Part shown: piece by piece, positions 49,298-55,927 of the stretch
Position numbering within the stretch: the first letter of the stretch is position 1
Layout: every line of letters starts with the position of its first letter
Source of the DNA: an uncultured Verrucomicrobiota bacterium
GTDB lineage: Bacteria > Verrucomicrobiota > Kiritimatiellia > CAIKKV01 > CAITUY01
Reading direction: 5' to 3'
DNA: 64,000 nucleotides
Assembly (NCBI GenBank): GCA_964508705.1
Contig: CAZDUS010000004.1
Location: forward strand, 2,762 to 66,761
Notes under the pieces: generated by a model
What the model saw: only the letters and a program-made list of their open reading frames with translations
Database searches by the model: none
Told to the model about the DNA's origin: nothing
Program-made: the position numbers and the translations under genes

Positions 49298-50701
49298 TTA
49301 TATCGGCGGCAATCGACCAATCATGTAAAATTCTTGCTCGTCCCGTCCGTCGTACGCCCCCTCTATGATTTTTGCGCAATCGCCAATCGTTGCCTCTGTC
49401 TGCACATACTGACCTTTTCTGCCCGTATAGGATTCCGCCACAAAACAGGGTTGGGTCATGTAGTTCTGGAGTTTCCTTGCGCGCTCATAAAGCAATCGAT
49501 CCGAACGCGACAACTCATCAATACCAATTACCGCTACGATCCGTCGCAATTCGTCATACTTGGTCAGGATTCGAATAACCTCCTGGGCTGTCTCAAAGTG
49601 ACGCTGCCCCACAATTGTCGAATCCAAGTTTGACGAAGAGGAGGTCAGTGGATCAATAGCCGGGTACAATCCAAGCTGCGCCCGATCACGCGACAACACC
49701 AGCACGGAATCCAGATAGCTGAATATCGCCACAACCGCAGGATCGGTCAGATCATCCGCGGGCACATATACAGCTTCAAACGCGGAAATAGACCCACCGG
49801 CACTCGCCTTGATTCGCTCATGCAAATCGCCAACTTCCGAACTCAACGTCGGTTGATATCCTGTCTCCGATGGCACACGCCCCATCAACGTTGAAATCTC
49901 AGATCCAGCTTGAACAAACCTGAATACATTATCAATAAACAACAAAACGTTCTTCCCCTGCTCCTGTAGCCACTCCGCCTGACAAATCCCTGTTTTGGCC
50001 ACTTCAAAACGCGCGCCTGGCGGTTCATCCATTTGCCCGAATGCCATGATAACCTTCTTGAGAATCCCCTCTCTCTCAAACTCATAATACAATTCATTAC
50101 CTTCTCGGATACGCTCGCCAACTCCAGTGAAGACACTGACGCCGTCATGCTCCTCGGCAACATTATGAATTAATTCTTGAATGACAACGCTCTTCCCGCA
50201 CCCAGCTCCCCCGAGAATCCCAGTCTTACTCCCCTTGACCACCGGGTAAAGGAGGTCAATCATCTTGACACCTGTCTCCATCACTTCGCGCTTATTTGAT
50301 GTTAAGGAGTCTACATTGACCCGCAACTTGCTGACGTCACGATGAATCGGTCTCGTTTCACTGGCGTTAATTGGCCCTTTCCCATCAATTGGCTCCCCCA
50401 TTACATTGATAATTCTTCCGAACAGAGCCTCTCCCACCGGCACTCTTAAGACATCACCAGTGGACACCGCCACCGCGTTCCTCTGCAAATTCAATGTTGA
50501 GGCCAATGCTATACACCTTGCAACATTACCTTCCAAGTGCTCCGCCACTTCTAGCGTCAGCATCCGCTTGTCAAAGGTCTTAACCTGAATAACTTCATGC
50601 AAGTCCGGCATATCAGCAATGCTTTGAAATTTGACATCAACAACGGGCCCCTGCACAGCCACAACCCGTCCTTTTTTTAATTCCTTAACCGATTCGCTCA
50701 T
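49298..50701 (-). CDS. atpD: F-type ATPase beta-like catalytic subunit (divergent)
   Basis: P-loop [38 protein letters not shown], and DELSRSD in place of DELSEED. ATG at 50701 with GAGGTG upstream. Confidence 0.9.
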
Positions 50702-50761
50702 CTTGCACCTCACTTCTGTTCAAATCCGCTATCGCCCACGGGAAATCATTCCTCTGTCGCT

Positions 50762-53016: not shown

Positions 53017-54501
53017 CTAACCTGCCAACCCCTTTTCGAAAAAAGCTTTCAATGCGTCCGATAGCCTGCGCTCCATCGCGGAATTTAGCGACTTCGACTC
53101 TTCAATATCCTTCAGCAACGCCGTATCGTGGGTTTTTGAAAATCCTCCGATATTTAGTTGGAATGCCTTGAGTTCCGCCGCATCCAAATCATCCAGAAGC
53201 CCTGTTTTCAAGGCATACAGGAGCAACACTTCTTCAGCAAGTTCAACAGGCTTATATTGCGCCTGTTGCATGACGCCAACCAATGCCTGTCCGCGTTTCA
53301 TCACCTGCTCGGCTTCCTTTGACAACCCGGACTGCAACTTGCTGAGCCGGGCGACTTCCACATATTGCAAATAGTCCCTGCGCAGAGATCCGCTTAACGC
53401 CCTTAATATGGGAAGTTGGGAACGACCACCCACAATTGAAATCGATAAATTGAAGTCCACCGCCGGACGCATCCCCTCGCCAAACAACGATGAGTTCATA
53501 TAGACAATACCGTCACAAATCGAAATGAGATTGGATGGAATATATCCCGTTAAATCCCCCTGCAACGTATCCGCGATCCCCAGAAACGTCATCGAGCCGC
53601 CCCCAGCCTCATTGTTCAGACGTCCAGCACGCTCCATCAATTGGGTTTGCACATAAAAAATATCCCCAGGATATGCCTCCCTGCCAGGCGGACGCTCCAA
53701 CAGCAATGATAACTGTCGGTAAGCCCATGCATGCTTAGTTAGATCGTCAAAAACCACCAAAACATCCCTTCCCTTTTTCATGAAATACTCGCCAATTGTC
53801 GCGGCGGAAAATGGCACAATATATTGCTCTCCTGCCGTGGCGCTATCCGTAGCGGCAACAATTCCAGTATACGTCAGAGCGCCTCTCTCGGCCAAAACCG
53901 CTATCACTTTTTCAAGCGCCACCACCGCCTTGCCCACACAACAGTACAAACAAACAACATTACGCCCCTTCTGGCTTAAAATCGCATCCACAGCCAGCGT
54001 CGTCTTGCCTGTCATGCGATCACCCATGATCAACTGACGCTGCCCTTTTCCAAGTGGCACCAGCGCATCCAGCACCTTGGTGCCTGAATACAAAAACCCA
54101 TCGACTGGCGCGCGCTCAGTAATAGGCGCCGAGGCGGCAAATACCGGCTTAATCATGTCAGATTGAATATCCCCTTTCCCGTCACACGGAACACCCAAAG
54201 CATCCACCATGCGCCCAATAAACCCTTCGCCAACAGGAATCGTAAACGGCTCGCTCGTCCCCGATACCATCTGACCCAACCTCACTTTGGAATCATCCCC
54301 CAAAAGCAAAGCCAAAACATCTTCCTCATTAAATCCCATGATAATCCCGCGGTTCCCCTCGCCAAAATCCACCAATTGCCCATTCAGACAGGAAGGCAGA
54401 CCGGTAACCCGGACAATCATTTTCTTAATGTCCTTGATTGTCCCTTTTTCGGTAATCTTGATCTTAAACGGGGCCACGGCTATACGAGGCGAGTTGCTCA
54501 T
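53017..54501 (-). CDS. atpA: F-type ATPase alpha-like subunit, paralogue 2 (Arg finger replaced)
   Basis: P-loop GDRMTGKTT and DDLTKHAWAYRQLSLLLERPPGREAYPGDIFY. SISIVGG stands where alpha subunits have SVSRVG. ATG at 54501 with AGGAGG upstream, lying inside the 3-prime end of paralogue 1. Confidence 0.9.
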   Translation of the reverse strand: MSNSPRIAVAPFKIKITEKGTIKDIKKMIVRVTGLPSCLNGQLVDFGEGNRGIIMGFNEEDVLALLLGDDSKVRLGQMVSGTSEPFTIPVGEGFIGRMVDALGVPCDGKGDIQSDMIKPVFAASAPITERAPVDGFLYSGTKVLDALVPLGKGQRQLIMGDRMTGKTTLAVDAILSQKGRNVVCLYCCVGKAVVALEKVIAVLAERGALTYTGIVAATDSATAGEQYIVPFSAATIGEYFMKKGRDVLVVFDDLTKHAWAYRQLSLLLERPPGREAYPGDIFYVQTQLMERAGRLNNEAGGGSMTFLGIADTLQGDLTGYIPSNLISICDGIVYMNSSLFGEGMRPAVDFNLSISIVGGRSQLPILRALSGSLRRDYLQYVEVARLSKLQSGLSKEAEQVMKRGQALVGVMQQAQYKPVELAEEVLLLYALKTGLLDDLDAAELKAFQLNIGGFSKTHDTALLKDIEESKSLNSAMERRLSDALKAFFEKGLAG

Positions 54502-55927
54502 GGAGTCCCTCCTTGATTTCAGCAGTCAAATCTTTCTTCTCAACCAATGCGGCCATCAACTCCGGCCTTTCCCGATGGACCTTCTCTATCAATCCTCTCA
54601 TATACGCGACCACCTGATCAGGCATCAGGTGTTCCATAAATCCGTTTGCCAACCCATACAGGACAACAATCTGGTCCTCAACTGCAACCGGCGAATCCTT
54701 ATCCTGCTTTAAAATCTCAGCTACCACGCGACCTTTCCGAAGACGCTTTTCCACCGCATCCGACACTCCCGCCTTGATACGCGTCAGCTTCTCCAACTCC
54801 TTAAACTGGATGTATTCCAGTCGCAAAATCCCAGCCAGTTTACGCATCGCAGGCCACTGCACTTTACTGCCAATACGAGAAACGGATAAGCCTATATCAA
54901 TAGCCGGCTTGAATCCCTCCGTGAATAACGGAGTACTCACATAAAGCTGCCCGTCCGTCATGGAAATAATATTCGTTGGAATATACCCTGTCACGTCCCC
55001 CTGCACTGTTTCCACAATCGGGAAAAACGTCATGGAGCCGGAGCCTCTTTCCGGATTTAACTTGCCGGCACGCTCAACAAGCTGGGAATGCAGGTAAAAA
55101 ATATCTCCCGGATACGCATCACGCCCCGGCGAGCGCTCCAGCAACAAGGACATTTGACGATACACCCAAGCATGCTTCGTAAGATCATCAAATACCACAA
55201 ACACATCCCGCCCCTTGACGTTCATGAAATACTCGCCAATACTGGCAGCCACATAGGGCGCCAGATATTGCTGCCCCACCGATGATGCCGCCGTGGCCGC
55301 AACAATCACAGCATAATCCATGGCGCCCCGCTCACGAAACAAATCCATCACGCGGTTCAGGGATGCCTCTGTCTTGCCTATGCTGCAATAGATGCAAATC
55401 ACATTCTTCCCCTTCTGGTTCAGAATGGTATCCGTGGCTATCGTCGTCTTCCCCGTAACACGATCGCCAAGGATTAACTGTCGTTGCCCTTTACCTACGG
55501 GGTTCATCATGTCGAGAATCTTAACCCCCGTCTCCAATGACTCTTTCAACGGAGTTCGCTCCAATACGCCGGGCGACATGCCGAATATAGGATAACGGCT
55601 TTCCGCCTTGATTGGGGCCCCTCCATCCATCGGCTCAGCCAACCCATTCACCACTCGGCCAAGGAATCCTTCCCCGACCGGCACCGTGCATGTCTCAATC
55701 GTGGAATGAAGCCTGTCGCCGGGTTTTAATTTCGCACCCTGTTTTACAATCATGGCTAACTCATAGCCACCATCAAAGCCCACGATAACACCCGTACTAC
55801 CACCGTCAAAATGCACCAATTGGCCATTCATGCAATTGGTCAGGCCTGTGATATGAGCAATGTCCTGCTTGATTTCAGCAACCAACCCATATTCCTTCAC
55901 CTGAAGCGGACTTATCTTTAAAGCCAT
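54464..55927 (-). CDS. atpA: F-type ATPase alpha-like subunit, paralogue 1
   Basis: P-loop GDRVTGKTT and DDLTKHAWVYRQMSLLLERSPGRDAYPGDIFY. SVSRIGS retains the Arg. Confidence 0.9.
   Translation of the reverse strand: MALKISPLQVKEYGLVAEIKQDIAHITGLTNCMNGQLVHFDGGSTGVIVGFDGGYELAMIVKQGAKLKPGDRLHSTIETCTVPVGEGFLGRVVNGLAEPMDGGAPIKAESRYPIFGMSPGVLERTPLKESLETGVKILDMMNPVGKGQRQLILGDRVTGKTTIATDTILNQKGKNVICIYCSIGKTEASLNRVMDLFRERGAMDYAVIVAATAASSVGQQYLAPYVAASIGEYFMNVKGRDVFVVFDDLTKHAWVYRQMSLLLERSPGRDAYPGDIFYLHSQLVERAGKLNPERGSGSMTFFPIVETVQGDVTGYIPTNIISMTDGQLYVSTPLFTEGFKPAIDIGLSVSRIGSKVQWPAMRKLAGILRLEYIQFKELEKLTRIKAGVSDAVEKRLRKGRVVAEILKQDKDSPVAVEDQIVVLYGLANGFMEHLMPDQVVAYMRGLIEKVHRERPELMAALVEKKDLTAEIKEGLHEQLASYSRGPV

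Follow-up and report, generated by a model that had tools for sequence, protein, structure and literature searches.

The 64,000-nt stretch of DNA analysed in this study (hereafter the window) carries an F-type ATPase gene cluster with the genes for a c-ring, central stalk and stator arm but none for an ion half-channel, and about 90 related loci share this composition. On balance, we believe that this F-type-derived, channel-less complex serves a T2SS-type (type IV filament) machine as a dedicated accessory inherited together with it, rather than being a proton- or sodium-coupled synthase, and that its output is mechanical and driven by ATP. Because the ion channel appears to have been lost and the remaining genes are built into a type II secretion system (T2SS) gene cluster in many uncultured PVC and Omnitrophota bacteria, the complex is probably a mechanical module and not the power generator of the cell. 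The earlier note on this DNA had proposed recruitment to a secretion machine in place of a housekeeping role. That proposal is supported by the losses of residue E54 in the c subunit, the altered alpha2, the truncated epsilon, the divergence of alpha and beta, and a linkage to p445 and T2SS genes that is kept across phyla. No description of this arrangement was found in the literature searched.

Organization of the locus

Seven ORFs were confirmed on the minus strand between 49298 and 55927, in the order alpha1, alpha2, epsilon, c, b-delta fusion, gamma and beta, and each matched in both Pfam and NCBIfam the family that the earlier note had assigned to it. The intergenic gaps within the seven-gene set are 13–60 nt, so there is no space for a further gene inside it. 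The two alpha genes overlap by 38 nt in the window (median −38 nt across 58 loci). The junction of beta and gspE reads TAA-GGGGAGCAGGA-ATG, with 11 nt from the beta stop to the gspE ATG (49286) and GGGGAG before the ATG, in agreement with the earlier reading; the median gap from beta to GspE across loci is 21 nt. A terminator or promoter separating the two genes had been named as evidence against a common unit, and neither a terminator-like nor a promoter-like site was found at the junction, while the counts of such sites in the region were equal to those in shuffled sequence. The layout is consistent with the ATPase genes and gspEFG lying on one transcript, and the conserved unit should extend upstream of alpha1 to take in p445 (56002–57360, minus strand), a conserved gene outside the Pfam and NCBIfam families.

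Judged by the content of the flanking genes, which is also what suggests their role in secretion, the ATPase cluster is located within a T2SS locus. GspE (47622–49286) and the platform protein GspF (46389–47603; T2SSF, 8.9e-59) are followed by the major pseudopilin GspG and the remaining genes to GspM/PilO (41965–46349), all on the minus strand and in conserved synteny. The last stretch encodes GspG (T2SSG), three minor pseudopilins (an N_methyl protein, GspJ with T2SSJ and GspK with T2SSK), a PilM-PilN fusion (PilM_2 and PilN) equivalent to GspL, and GspM/PilO (T2SSM_b). The C-terminal end of the secretin GspD (63732–64000, minus strand) is cut by the window edge, and identical contigs show PF00263 Secretin there and carry both GspC and GspD (T2SSC, Secretin) further upstream of the genes of the window. 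The gene content expected of a T2SS is thus present, from GspD, GspC, E, F and G to the minor pseudopilins and the L/M equivalents. GspE, with its MshEN and T2SSE domains, has intact motifs, so this T2SS already has its own ATPase and no evident need for a second motor, which counts against the mechanical reading.

Conservation across lineages

The earlier note had called for a survey of PVC and other genomes, and the arrangement indeed recurs. The order p445-alpha(s)-epsilon-c-b/delta-gamma-beta-GspE-GspF-GspG to GspM was found in about 80 species-level genomes among the matches listed, and also in marine and freshwater metagenome contigs. Carriers belong to at least three lineages, namely Kiritimatiellia, Lentisphaerota/Victivallales and Omnitrophota. 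GspE is next after beta in 67 of 69 loci, GspF is always two genes downstream of beta, and p445 is the gene immediately upstream of the ATPase set in no fewer than 47 of 54 loci. The genome scan was pattern-limited and gave 86 matches; the named carriers among the 80 of these that were listed are all MAGs or SAGs, with no cultured type strain.

The gene order had been described as unlike any known one. This holds for the window, but not for the Omnitrophota relatives, whose order (eps-c-b/delta-alpha-gamma-beta) is the canonical one without a, with a b-delta fusion and with epsilon placed first. Despite this different internal order, the linkage to p445 and the T2SS is kept in Omnitrophota.

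Head and stalk subunits

Beta (ORF 49298–50713, minus strand, likely ATG start 50701, 467 aa) retains the catalytic residues expected of this subunit in an alpha3beta3 head. The motifs GGAGCGK[ST] (Walker A), GER[IT]REG (catalytic Glu) and LLFxDN (Walker B) are present in all 73 sequences, and the best PDB match is the F1 beta of 2qe7 (509 bits). The DELSEED loop reads DELSRSD in the window and is relaxed to DELS[KR]xD in the family. Alpha1 (54464–55927, minus strand; ATP-synt_ab, 2e-72) has the Walker A motif GDRVTGKT and the arginine finger SVSRIG, with Arg in 63 of 63 family members. Both subunits pass the NCBIfam cut-offs for ordinary atpA and atpD (alpha1, PRK13343, 563 vs 554 bits; beta, TIGR01039, 577.6 vs 462.85 bits), and their identities to the E. 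coli subunits are 38% for alpha and 48% for beta.

Alpha2 (53017–54501, minus strand) is a paralogue of alpha1 that matches the alpha families of Pfam and NCBIfam and branches as a clade of its own in the NJ tree. Its Walker A motif is intact, but, unlike alpha1, it offers no arginine finger: the motif is SISIVG in the window, and the position is Ile in 57, Val in 6 and Arg in none of 63 sequences. An alpha subunit of this kind should slow rotary catalysis, and this counts against a mechanical rotary reading. The Omnitrophota relatives encode one alpha only, with the arginine finger present, and this implies a standard alpha3beta3 head.

The stalk subunits gamma, epsilon, b and delta are all recognizable by the Pfam families ATP-synt, ATP-synt_DE_N and OSCP, with b and delta fused and epsilon reduced to its N-terminal domain. 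Gamma (50762–51658, minus strand; PF00231, 1.9e-26) is the central-stalk subunit, and 521 homologous clusters were found. Epsilon (52710–53003, minus strand) matches ATP-synt_DE_N only, over residues 7–79; it consists of the N-terminal beta-sandwich alone, and the C-terminal helices that inhibit hydrolysis are missing. Its ORFs in the family are mostly about 75–100 aa, compared with 139 aa in E. coli. The b-delta fusion (ORF 51683–52429, gene-caller start 52414, 243 aa, minus strand) starts with a TM helix, continues as a long charged helix and ends in an OSCP/delta-like domain (OSCP, 1.1e-7) with the motif KLGSLEIDGSL, and that of one relative matches both ATP-synt_B and OSCP.

Probable loss of the ion pathway

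No gene for subunit a, AtpI or AtpQ/R was found in the ATPase locus of the window. Of the 88 ORFs with 30 aa or more that lie on either strand between 49 and 58 kb, only c, p445 and one antisense ORF showed at least two hydrophobic segments. Phmmer searches with E. coli AtpB and AtpI gave no match at E≤10 in the window and 85 related loci. A subunit-a-like gene was present in none of the neighbourhoods of about 90 related loci, and none of these had a polytopic ORF at a conserved position. ATP-synt_A, with the two half-channels and the essential Arg of an F1Fo synthase, is therefore absent at the level of the locus, and the earlier claim of a c-ring, stalk and stator without a half-channel is borne out beyond the window.

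The c subunit (52480–52692, minus strand; ATP-synt_C, 1.3e-7) is a 70-aa hairpin with an RNP loop, and E54 lies 18 residues past the loop Pro, the same spacing as D61 of E. coli. It is the best-conserved protein of the cluster (86% mean identity); the loop ALGRNPSAA is invariant in 72 of 72 sequences, and apart from residue 54 the whole protein, with the RNP loop on which gamma and epsilon dock, is nearly invariant. The mid-membrane carboxylate, invariant in an F1Fo synthase, is Glu in the window yet varies across the family: in the 72-species alignment, Glu is kept in 87%, and 9 species have Q, M or G, with losses on at least 7 independent branches. The ion-binding carboxylate of the c-ring is thus dispensable across the family. 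Because 87% of species retain it, most of them may still make use of ion binding.

These observations bear first on the reading that the cluster is an ordinary housekeeping F1Fo ATP synthase, with subunit a encoded elsewhere and the T2SS adjacency an inherited order without functional meaning. Split atp operons do occur in other bacteria, the catalytic residues of beta are complete, alpha1 and beta pass the equivalog cut-offs, and the c subunit of the window and most relatives has its RNP loop and its Glu at the canonical spacing. A coupling c-ring could not tolerate losing E54 at least 7 times while the rest of c is strongly constrained, however, and an a gene is lacking at all of about 90 related loci. 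Gamma, epsilon, c and b also score far under their NCBIfam cut-offs, and the linkage to p445 and GspE has outlasted the rearrangement of the ATPase genes that separates Omnitrophota from PVC. That the listed carriers of the pattern-limited scan are all MAGs or SAGs is weak evidence in the same direction. A housekeeping, ion-translocating synthase is disfavoured because E54 is lost, alpha2 has no arginine finger and epsilon has no inhibitory domain, and we consider this reading quite unlikely.

Ions might instead still be translocated with a non-canonical stator, the c-ring running against GspF or against the TM helices of b-delta and p445, so that a local gradient is made or used for pseudopilus assembly. 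The Glu kept in most species would fit this, as would the constant position of GspF and a conserved polar Gln or His in the b-delta TM helix of the nine sequences inspected. An ion-channel function has been proposed for the GspF family, and the T2SS needs both PMF and ATP (PMC10790770). On the other side, the cluster is otherwise intact in the nine species where Glu 54 has become Q, M or G. The conserved Arg of p445 is at the cytoplasmic end of its helix and not in mid-membrane, and the residue is M and I, respectively, in two Omnitrophota loci (L074 and L081) and S in a Victivallales locus (L035). From what is generally known of subunit a, two half-channels are impossible from single TM helices. 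We regard such a stator as improbable.

Comparison with known rotary ATPases

The cluster shares with the canonical F1Fo synthase (atpIBEFHAGDC) homologous alpha, beta, gamma, epsilon, c, b and delta subunits, the intact beta motifs, the c hairpin described above and, in Omnitrophota, the order c-b/delta-alpha-gamma-beta. It differs in having neither subunit a nor AtpI at the locus, a dispensable carboxylate, fused b and delta, a duplicated alpha of which one copy lacks the Arg, an epsilon without the C-terminal domain, diverged alpha and beta, and p445 and T2SS genes as neighbours. With the N-ATPase (atpDCQRBEFAG), it has in common the absence of a separate delta gene and a b-delta whose best score is to the N-ATPase b model (TIGR03321, 4.9e-13). 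In contrast, AtpQ, AtpR and a are missing, the gene order differs, and all TIGR0330x/0332x scores are under the cut-offs (alt_F1F0 models: alpha 515 vs 750, beta 507 vs 752, gamma 25 vs 282).

Two F1-derived systems of Mycoplasma, the Type 3 F1-like X0 (MIB-MIP) and the Type 2 G1-ATPase (gliding motor), likewise lack the Fo subunit a and are linked to a surface machine. Studies have shown that a surface system of Mycoplasma depends on the F1-like X0 ATPase, that the gene cluster of this ATPase includes a gene for a protein that has a signal peptide, two globular domains and C-terminal TM helices, and that the N-terminal helix of its alpha is shortened (PMC12994834). We see in it a precedent for the mechanical reading and take Type 3 to be the closest functional analogue. 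However, past alpha, beta, gamma and epsilon there is no detectable homology; the Mycoplasma systems have a 12-TM protein in place of c and b-delta, and their hosts are wall-less Mollicutes without a T2SS, whereas the carriers described here are diderm PVC or Omnitrophota. Scores to MSC_0618/0619 and MMOB1660/1670 were 307–435 bits vs cut-offs of 520–850, and p445 matches no NCBIfam model.

The export ATPases of type III secretion and flagella (FliI/SctN with FliJ/SctO and FliH/SctL) are, as is generally known, rotary-ATPase relatives in a secretion system, with an ATPase ring and gamma-like and b/delta-like parts. Unlike the cluster with its true F-type subunits, FliI/SctN is an anciently diverged homohexamer without a c-ring, and its partner is a type III and not a type II system; the TIGR01026 scores were 139–215 bits vs a cut-off of 379.5, and FliI and SctN models gave 160–215 bits where at least 380 is required. 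By this example, the complex could be a non-rotary, membrane-anchored ATPase platform, in which the F1-like head is a chaperone, unfoldase or assembly/regulatory ATPase for cytoplasmic steps (pseudopilin or giant-protein targeting) and the c-ring and b-delta are anchors only. The dispensable carboxylate agrees with this, and the Arg-less alpha2 suggests an asymmetric head that is poor at continuous rotation. Yet the rotor set of gamma, the epsilon N-domain and the c loop is kept, an interface that matters for torque transmission only; the single Omnitrophota alpha gives a standard head; and T2SS substrates are handled in the periplasm. We therefore consider a non-rotary platform rather unlikely.

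Protein p445 and the proposed mechanism

The p445 protein is specific to this family and is predicted to be bitopic, with a signal peptide, two periplasmic repeats of a beta-sandwich plus three-helix bundle, and a C-terminal TM helix. This helix (KTTWxIIYIILGFLxxxSLLFFLRWYGK) is much more strongly conserved than the remainder of the protein. The p445 profile found 961 representative proteins at E≤1e-3. AF2 models reached a pLDDT of 87 (full length) and 92.7 (repeat 1), and Foldseek searches with them against the PDB gave no match at E≤0.001.

For the ATP-driven mechanical module that we favour, alpha1, alpha2 and beta would form the head, gamma and epsilon the central stalk, c the ring and b-delta the peripheral stalk; subunit a would have been lost, and the c-ring carboxylate would no longer be needed. 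ATP hydrolysis by beta would make gamma-epsilon and the attached c-ring turn or swing against the membrane-anchored b-delta stator. Since the locus encodes no ion path, the output would have to be mechanical. We speculate that the c-ring and the TM helix of p445, whose contact is suggested by conservation and adjacency, pass the motion across the inner membrane to periplasmic components of the secretion apparatus or to its cargo. Hydrolysis as the working direction, the rotation and any role in secretion are likewise what we infer.

The complex would have the bitopic p445 as a partner and, in the majority of lineages, also a giant adhesin-like protein. A giant Ig/Laminin_G-repeat protein occupies, in most other loci, the place where the window has the genes 57428–63719 (minus strand). 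The latter encode a 114-aa lipoprotein-like protein, a TPR/CarboxypepD_reg/redoxin-like protein, a response regulator, a histidine kinase and a TPR protein, and among the loci compared they were seen only in close relatives of the window. At locus L081, a p445 repeat and TM helix form part of a giant protein itself, a fusion that connects the two. Fusions of p445 to giant adhesin-like proteins are seen from time to time.

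Cluster Composition and Genomic Context

The earlier note had described seven consecutive F-type ORFs on the minus strand, and these were confirmed, with families assigned by Pfam and NCBIfam. From upstream to downstream, they are alpha1 (54464-55927), alpha2 (53017-54501, overlapping alpha1 by 38 nt), epsilon (52710-53003, with the beta-sandwich domain only), c (52480-52692), b-delta (51683-52414/52429), gamma (50762-51658), and beta (49298-50701, with an ATG start, 467 aa, and the same call on identical contigs). In b-delta, a single TM helix and a long charged helix are followed by an OSCP-like C-terminus; the top-scoring NCBIfam model for this protein is the N-ATPase-type b. 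Intergenic gaps among the seven genes are 13-60 nt. The 11 nt reported between the beta stop and the gspE ATG were also found in the sequence, and the spacer is GGGGAGCAGGA.

Downstream of beta, Pfam identified GspE (MshEN and T2SSE domains), GspF, and GspG, which are followed by three minor pseudopilins (GspJ and GspK among them), a PilM-PilN fusion, and GspM/PilO. The upstream side begins with p445 (56002-57360, minus strand), a gene for a bitopic periplasmic protein of 445-452 aa with no family assigned, and continues with a small lipoprotein-like gene, a TPR/CarboxypepD_reg gene, a two-component system, a TPR protein, and the end of a secretin. On contigs with an identical alpha1, GspC and the full secretin come next, beyond the window edge. 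Because Gsp genes flank both sides, the ATPase genes lie inside a T2SS locus. A promoter and terminator scan found neither at the beta-gspE junction, but the site counts of the region were those of shuffled sequence, so this outcome says little in either direction. We infer from the sequence that the ATPase genes are co-transcribed with the gsp genes.

Directly 3' of gspM (38227-41764, minus strand) lie three ORFs of 600, 340, and 227 aa, which by eye carry apparent N-terminal signal sequences. The 600-aa ORF gave a weak, sub-threshold match to TSP3 repeats. These three products could be substrates of the secretion system.

Distribution and Synteny of the Family

In a large protein collection, the homologues of gamma formed 521 clusters at 90% identity. 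At least 86 species-level genomes (one genome per species) have a relative, and 80 loci were retrieved with a span limited to 10 kb on either side, all from MAGs or SAGs of uncultured organisms. About 12 of the 80 were labelled Kiritimatiellia, about 25 Lentisphaerota or Victivallales, 5 Omnitrophota, and 1 Neomarinimicrobiota; the remainder were labelled only "Verrucomicrobiota", "PVC group", or "bacterium".

A survey of the gene order beside gspE in PVC and other genomes, which the earlier note had proposed, revealed the same architecture almost everywhere in the related loci. According to the ORF and BLAST map, the near-universal layout is p445 (often preceded by a giant protein), alpha1, alpha2, epsilon, c, b-delta, gamma, beta, GspE, and GspF, followed by an optional Peptidase_MA_2 gene, GspG, minor pseudopilins, a GspL-like gene, and GspM. 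GspE comes after beta in 67 of the 69 loci with enough downstream sequence (median gap 21 nt). The first ATPase gene has p445 ahead of it in at least 47 of 54 loci, and of the seven loci that seem to deviate, at least four carry a divergent p445 that fell below the threshold used. Marine TARA contigs and other metagenome contigs have the same layout.

The Omnitrophota-type loci carry a single alpha in the order p445, epsilon, c, b-delta, alpha, gamma, beta, GspE. This is the canonical c-b-delta-alpha-gamma-beta order, except that a is gone, b and delta form one gene, and epsilon has shifted to the front; therefore, the family derives from a canonical F-type operon. According to the NJ tree, the duplication of alpha and its shift to the front are later events in the PVC lineages.

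Some loci differ in other genes. At the related locus L031 (15593-16420) and at many Lentisphaerota and Kiritimatiellia loci, the gene between gspF and gspG is a Peptidase_MA_2 gene (HEMTH motif, 260-275 aa, signal peptide), which is not in the window. Only p445 and epsilon are left at locus L089, followed directly by PilM-N and PilO; since the ATPase and GspE-K genes are missing, the system seems to have decayed or undergone deletion there. The same locus (8946-11845) has a bAvd/23S_rRNA_IVP gene between p445 and a protein of >3,499 aa with Laminin_G_3 repeats. bAvd is an accessory gene of diversity-generating retroelements.

p445 and the Giant Proteins

Behind its signal peptide, p445 has two repeats, each made of a beta-sandwich and then a three-helix bundle, and it has a TM helix at the C-terminus. 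AF2 models had a pLDDT of 87 for the full protein and 92.7 for repeat 1. p445 had no match in Pfam or NCBIfam, and neither model had a Foldseek match in the PDB at E<=0.001. In a search with a p445 profile, 961 representative proteins passed E<=1e-3, of which 356 also passed E<=1e-30; some are 1,200-2,000 aa long and carry p445 C-terminally, and others have ~650 aa. The TM helix (KTTWxIIYIILGFLxxxSLLFFLRWYGK) is conserved far above the periplasmic part, which points to a specific partner within the membrane.

In most lineages other than that of the window, a giant protein of 1,100 to >3,400 aa with Laminin_G_3, Ig-like, or fn3 repeats is encoded upstream of p445. An Omnitrophota locus (L081:58-7260) encodes a 2,400-aa protein in which a giant-protein region is fused with a single p445 repeat plus TM helix. 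The 677-aa protein of another locus (L080:4887-6920) combines p445 with a GGDEF diguanylate cyclase domain, and a p445-GGDEF fusion was also found on contig P0239.

Absence of Subunit a from the Locus

The claim that the cluster lacks subunit a and AtpI was borne out at the locus by a survey of ORF hydrophobicity and by phmmer. The two strands between 49 and 58 kb have 88 ORFs of 30 aa or more, and of these only c, p445, and an antisense ORF show two or more hydrophobic segments. With E. coli AtpB and AtpI as queries, phmmer gave no match at E<=10 in the window or in 85 related loci, and no gene resembling subunit a was seen within 10 kb on either side at any related locus examined.

Two candidates for a hidden subunit a were considered. 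Polytopic neighbours, which are rare at the related loci, were ruled out, because by eye they resemble unrelated transporters or enzymes (TauE-like, Wzx-like, PntA/B, ExbB/MotA-like, prepilin peptidase, P-type ATPase, MlaE-like, and DedA-like). p445 was ruled out as well, since it has a single TM helix with its conserved Arg at the cytoplasmic boundary; L074 and L081 (both Omnitrophota) and L035 lack this Arg, which does not co-vary with the loss of E54, the ion-binding carboxylate of c.

Subunit Features Bearing on Function

Beta kept Walker A, the catalytic Glu/Arg pair in GER(I/T)REG, and Walker B in all 73 sequences, and its closest solved structure is the bacterial F1 beta 2qe7 (509 bits). 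The head is expected to hydrolyse ATP. The C-terminal helices of epsilon, which inhibit hydrolysis in bacterial synthases, are absent, and the DELSEED loop has the relaxed form DELS[KR]xD.

The most conserved protein of the cluster is c, with a mean pairwise identity of 86%, compared with 76% for beta and 39% for p445. Its cytoplasmic loop ALGRNPSAA is invariant in the alignment of 72 species. We also considered that the complex is an anchored ATPase platform that does not rotate, like FliI-FliH-FliJ; it is rather unlikely given the strict conservation of the rotor interface.

E54 lies 18 residues past the loop Pro, a spacing equal to that of E. coli D61. In coupling c-rings, this carboxylate is known to be essential and does not vary. 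Here, it was replaced in 9 of 72 species (Gln in four, Met in four, Gly in one), on at least seven separate branches of the beta tree. That E54 was lost repeatedly while the remainder of c stayed strongly constrained means that the ring is needed structurally, and not for carrying ions, at least in these species. The same losses weaken the explanation that ions are translocated against a non-canonical stator such as GspF; GspF has been proposed as an ion channel (PMC10790770), and yet we regard this explanation as improbable.

The arginine finger SVSR[IV]G is present in alpha1 in 63 of 63 sequences and is replaced by Ile or Val in alpha2 in 63 of 63, while both paralogues keep the P-loop Lys. 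The single alpha of Omnitrophota has the finger. The loss in alpha2 suggests that the catalytic sites bordered by this subunit should be crippled in the PVC members. Together with the E54 losses and the conserved linkage, alpha2 weakens the alternative of a housekeeping synthase whose atpB lies elsewhere in the genome, which we consider quite improbable. Where E. coli alpha has Q200, the counterpart of the beta catalytic Glu, both alpha paralogues have Lys, or rarely Arg, in the window (53017-55927, minus strand) and across the family; this substitution is family-specific.

Identity to E. coli is 38% for alpha and 48% for beta. Alpha1 and beta score above the NCBIfam equivalog cut-offs, and gamma, epsilon, c, and b score far under theirs. 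Because alpha1 and beta exceed these cut-offs, public annotation names the cluster genes as ordinary F0F1 ATP synthase subunits, so that an F-type ATP synthase may be wrongly attributed to MAGs of Kiritimatiellia, Lentisphaerota, and Omnitrophota in metabolic reconstructions.

Proposed Function and Comparison with Known Systems

Rotary F-type ATPases are the textbook ion-coupled energy converters. Judged by homology, the present complex is an F-type ATPase. It lacks three features that define the ion-translocating F-type enzyme: subunit a (at the locus), a carboxylate that never varies, and an arginine finger in each alpha copy. In the best-supported reading, it is probably an ATP-hydrolysing module of F-type descent, no longer coupled to ions, that serves the T2SS-type machine next to it. 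The earlier note had raised recruitment to a secretion machine as a speculation, which is now supported by the absence of subunit a from the locus, the dispensable carboxylate, the asymmetric alpha pair, and the linkage across phyla. In such a module, gamma-epsilon and the c-ring would move against b-delta. The work would cross the membrane, most plausibly via the c-ring and the p445 helix, and its recipients would be periplasmic components or the giant protein. More tentatively, we speculate that it is an ATP-driven rotary motor, in which F1 spins an ion-free c-ring and torque passes via the p445 TM helix to periplasmic T2SS-type parts or a giant surface protein; this is possible, though doubtful.

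To our knowledge, the only well-documented repurposed rotary versions are the F1-like motors of Mycoplasma and, more distantly, the type III secretion ATPase complex. The latter is a conceptual parallel, and FliI, FliJ, and FliH are homologous to parts of F1. The complex finds its nearest functional counterparts in Mycoplasma: the Type 3 F1-like X0 ATPase, on which the MIB-MIP surface system depends (PMC12994834), and the Type 2 gliding G1-ATPase (PMC11864180; structure 9io5). Both lack the c and b-delta present in our cluster, their hosts are wall-less bacteria, and their partner proteins have no detectable homology with the cluster. The N-ATPase, considered for the b-delta match, was ruled out; AtpQ, AtpR, and a genes are absent, and scores were below the model cut-offs. 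Full-text searches of the literature gave no description of a T2SS-linked, or a PVC or Omnitrophota, a-less F-type ATPase, and the Pontiella paper does not mention an ATPase. The system is probably a repurposed F-type ATPase that is apparently undescribed in the literature searched.

This large family kept the rotor, c-ring, and stator arm, dropped the ion channel and, repeatedly, the ion-binding residue, and is wired into a type II secretion operon of diderm bacteria. If the module works mechanically, a c-ring is usable as a pure rotor or anchor, the family is a living intermediate for the capture of rotary ATPases by secretion systems, and it may explain how envelope machines are powered in low-PMF anaerobes. 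If torque is transmitted across the inner membrane, it would be a third way of energising envelope-spanning machines, besides PMF-driven 5:2 motors and cytoplasmic hexameric ATPases. It would also be a second case, in addition to type III secretion, in which a secretion system has independently captured a rotary ATPase.

Other Features of the Window

The GC skew is strongly negative in all 2-kb bins of the window (1-64000; -0.05 to -0.31), almost all long ORFs are on the minus strand, and the compositional bias between strands is unusually strong. Rfam and ARAGORN gave no matches over the window beyond tRNA-Glu(CTC) at 12645-12719 and tRNA-Thr(CGT) at 34086-34161, both on the minus strand. At 16871-21924 (minus strand), a 149-aa ORF with the prepilin-type N-terminus GFTFLEILIAMLIV is followed by two ORFs of ~750 aa, and this may be a second pseudopilin-associated locus.
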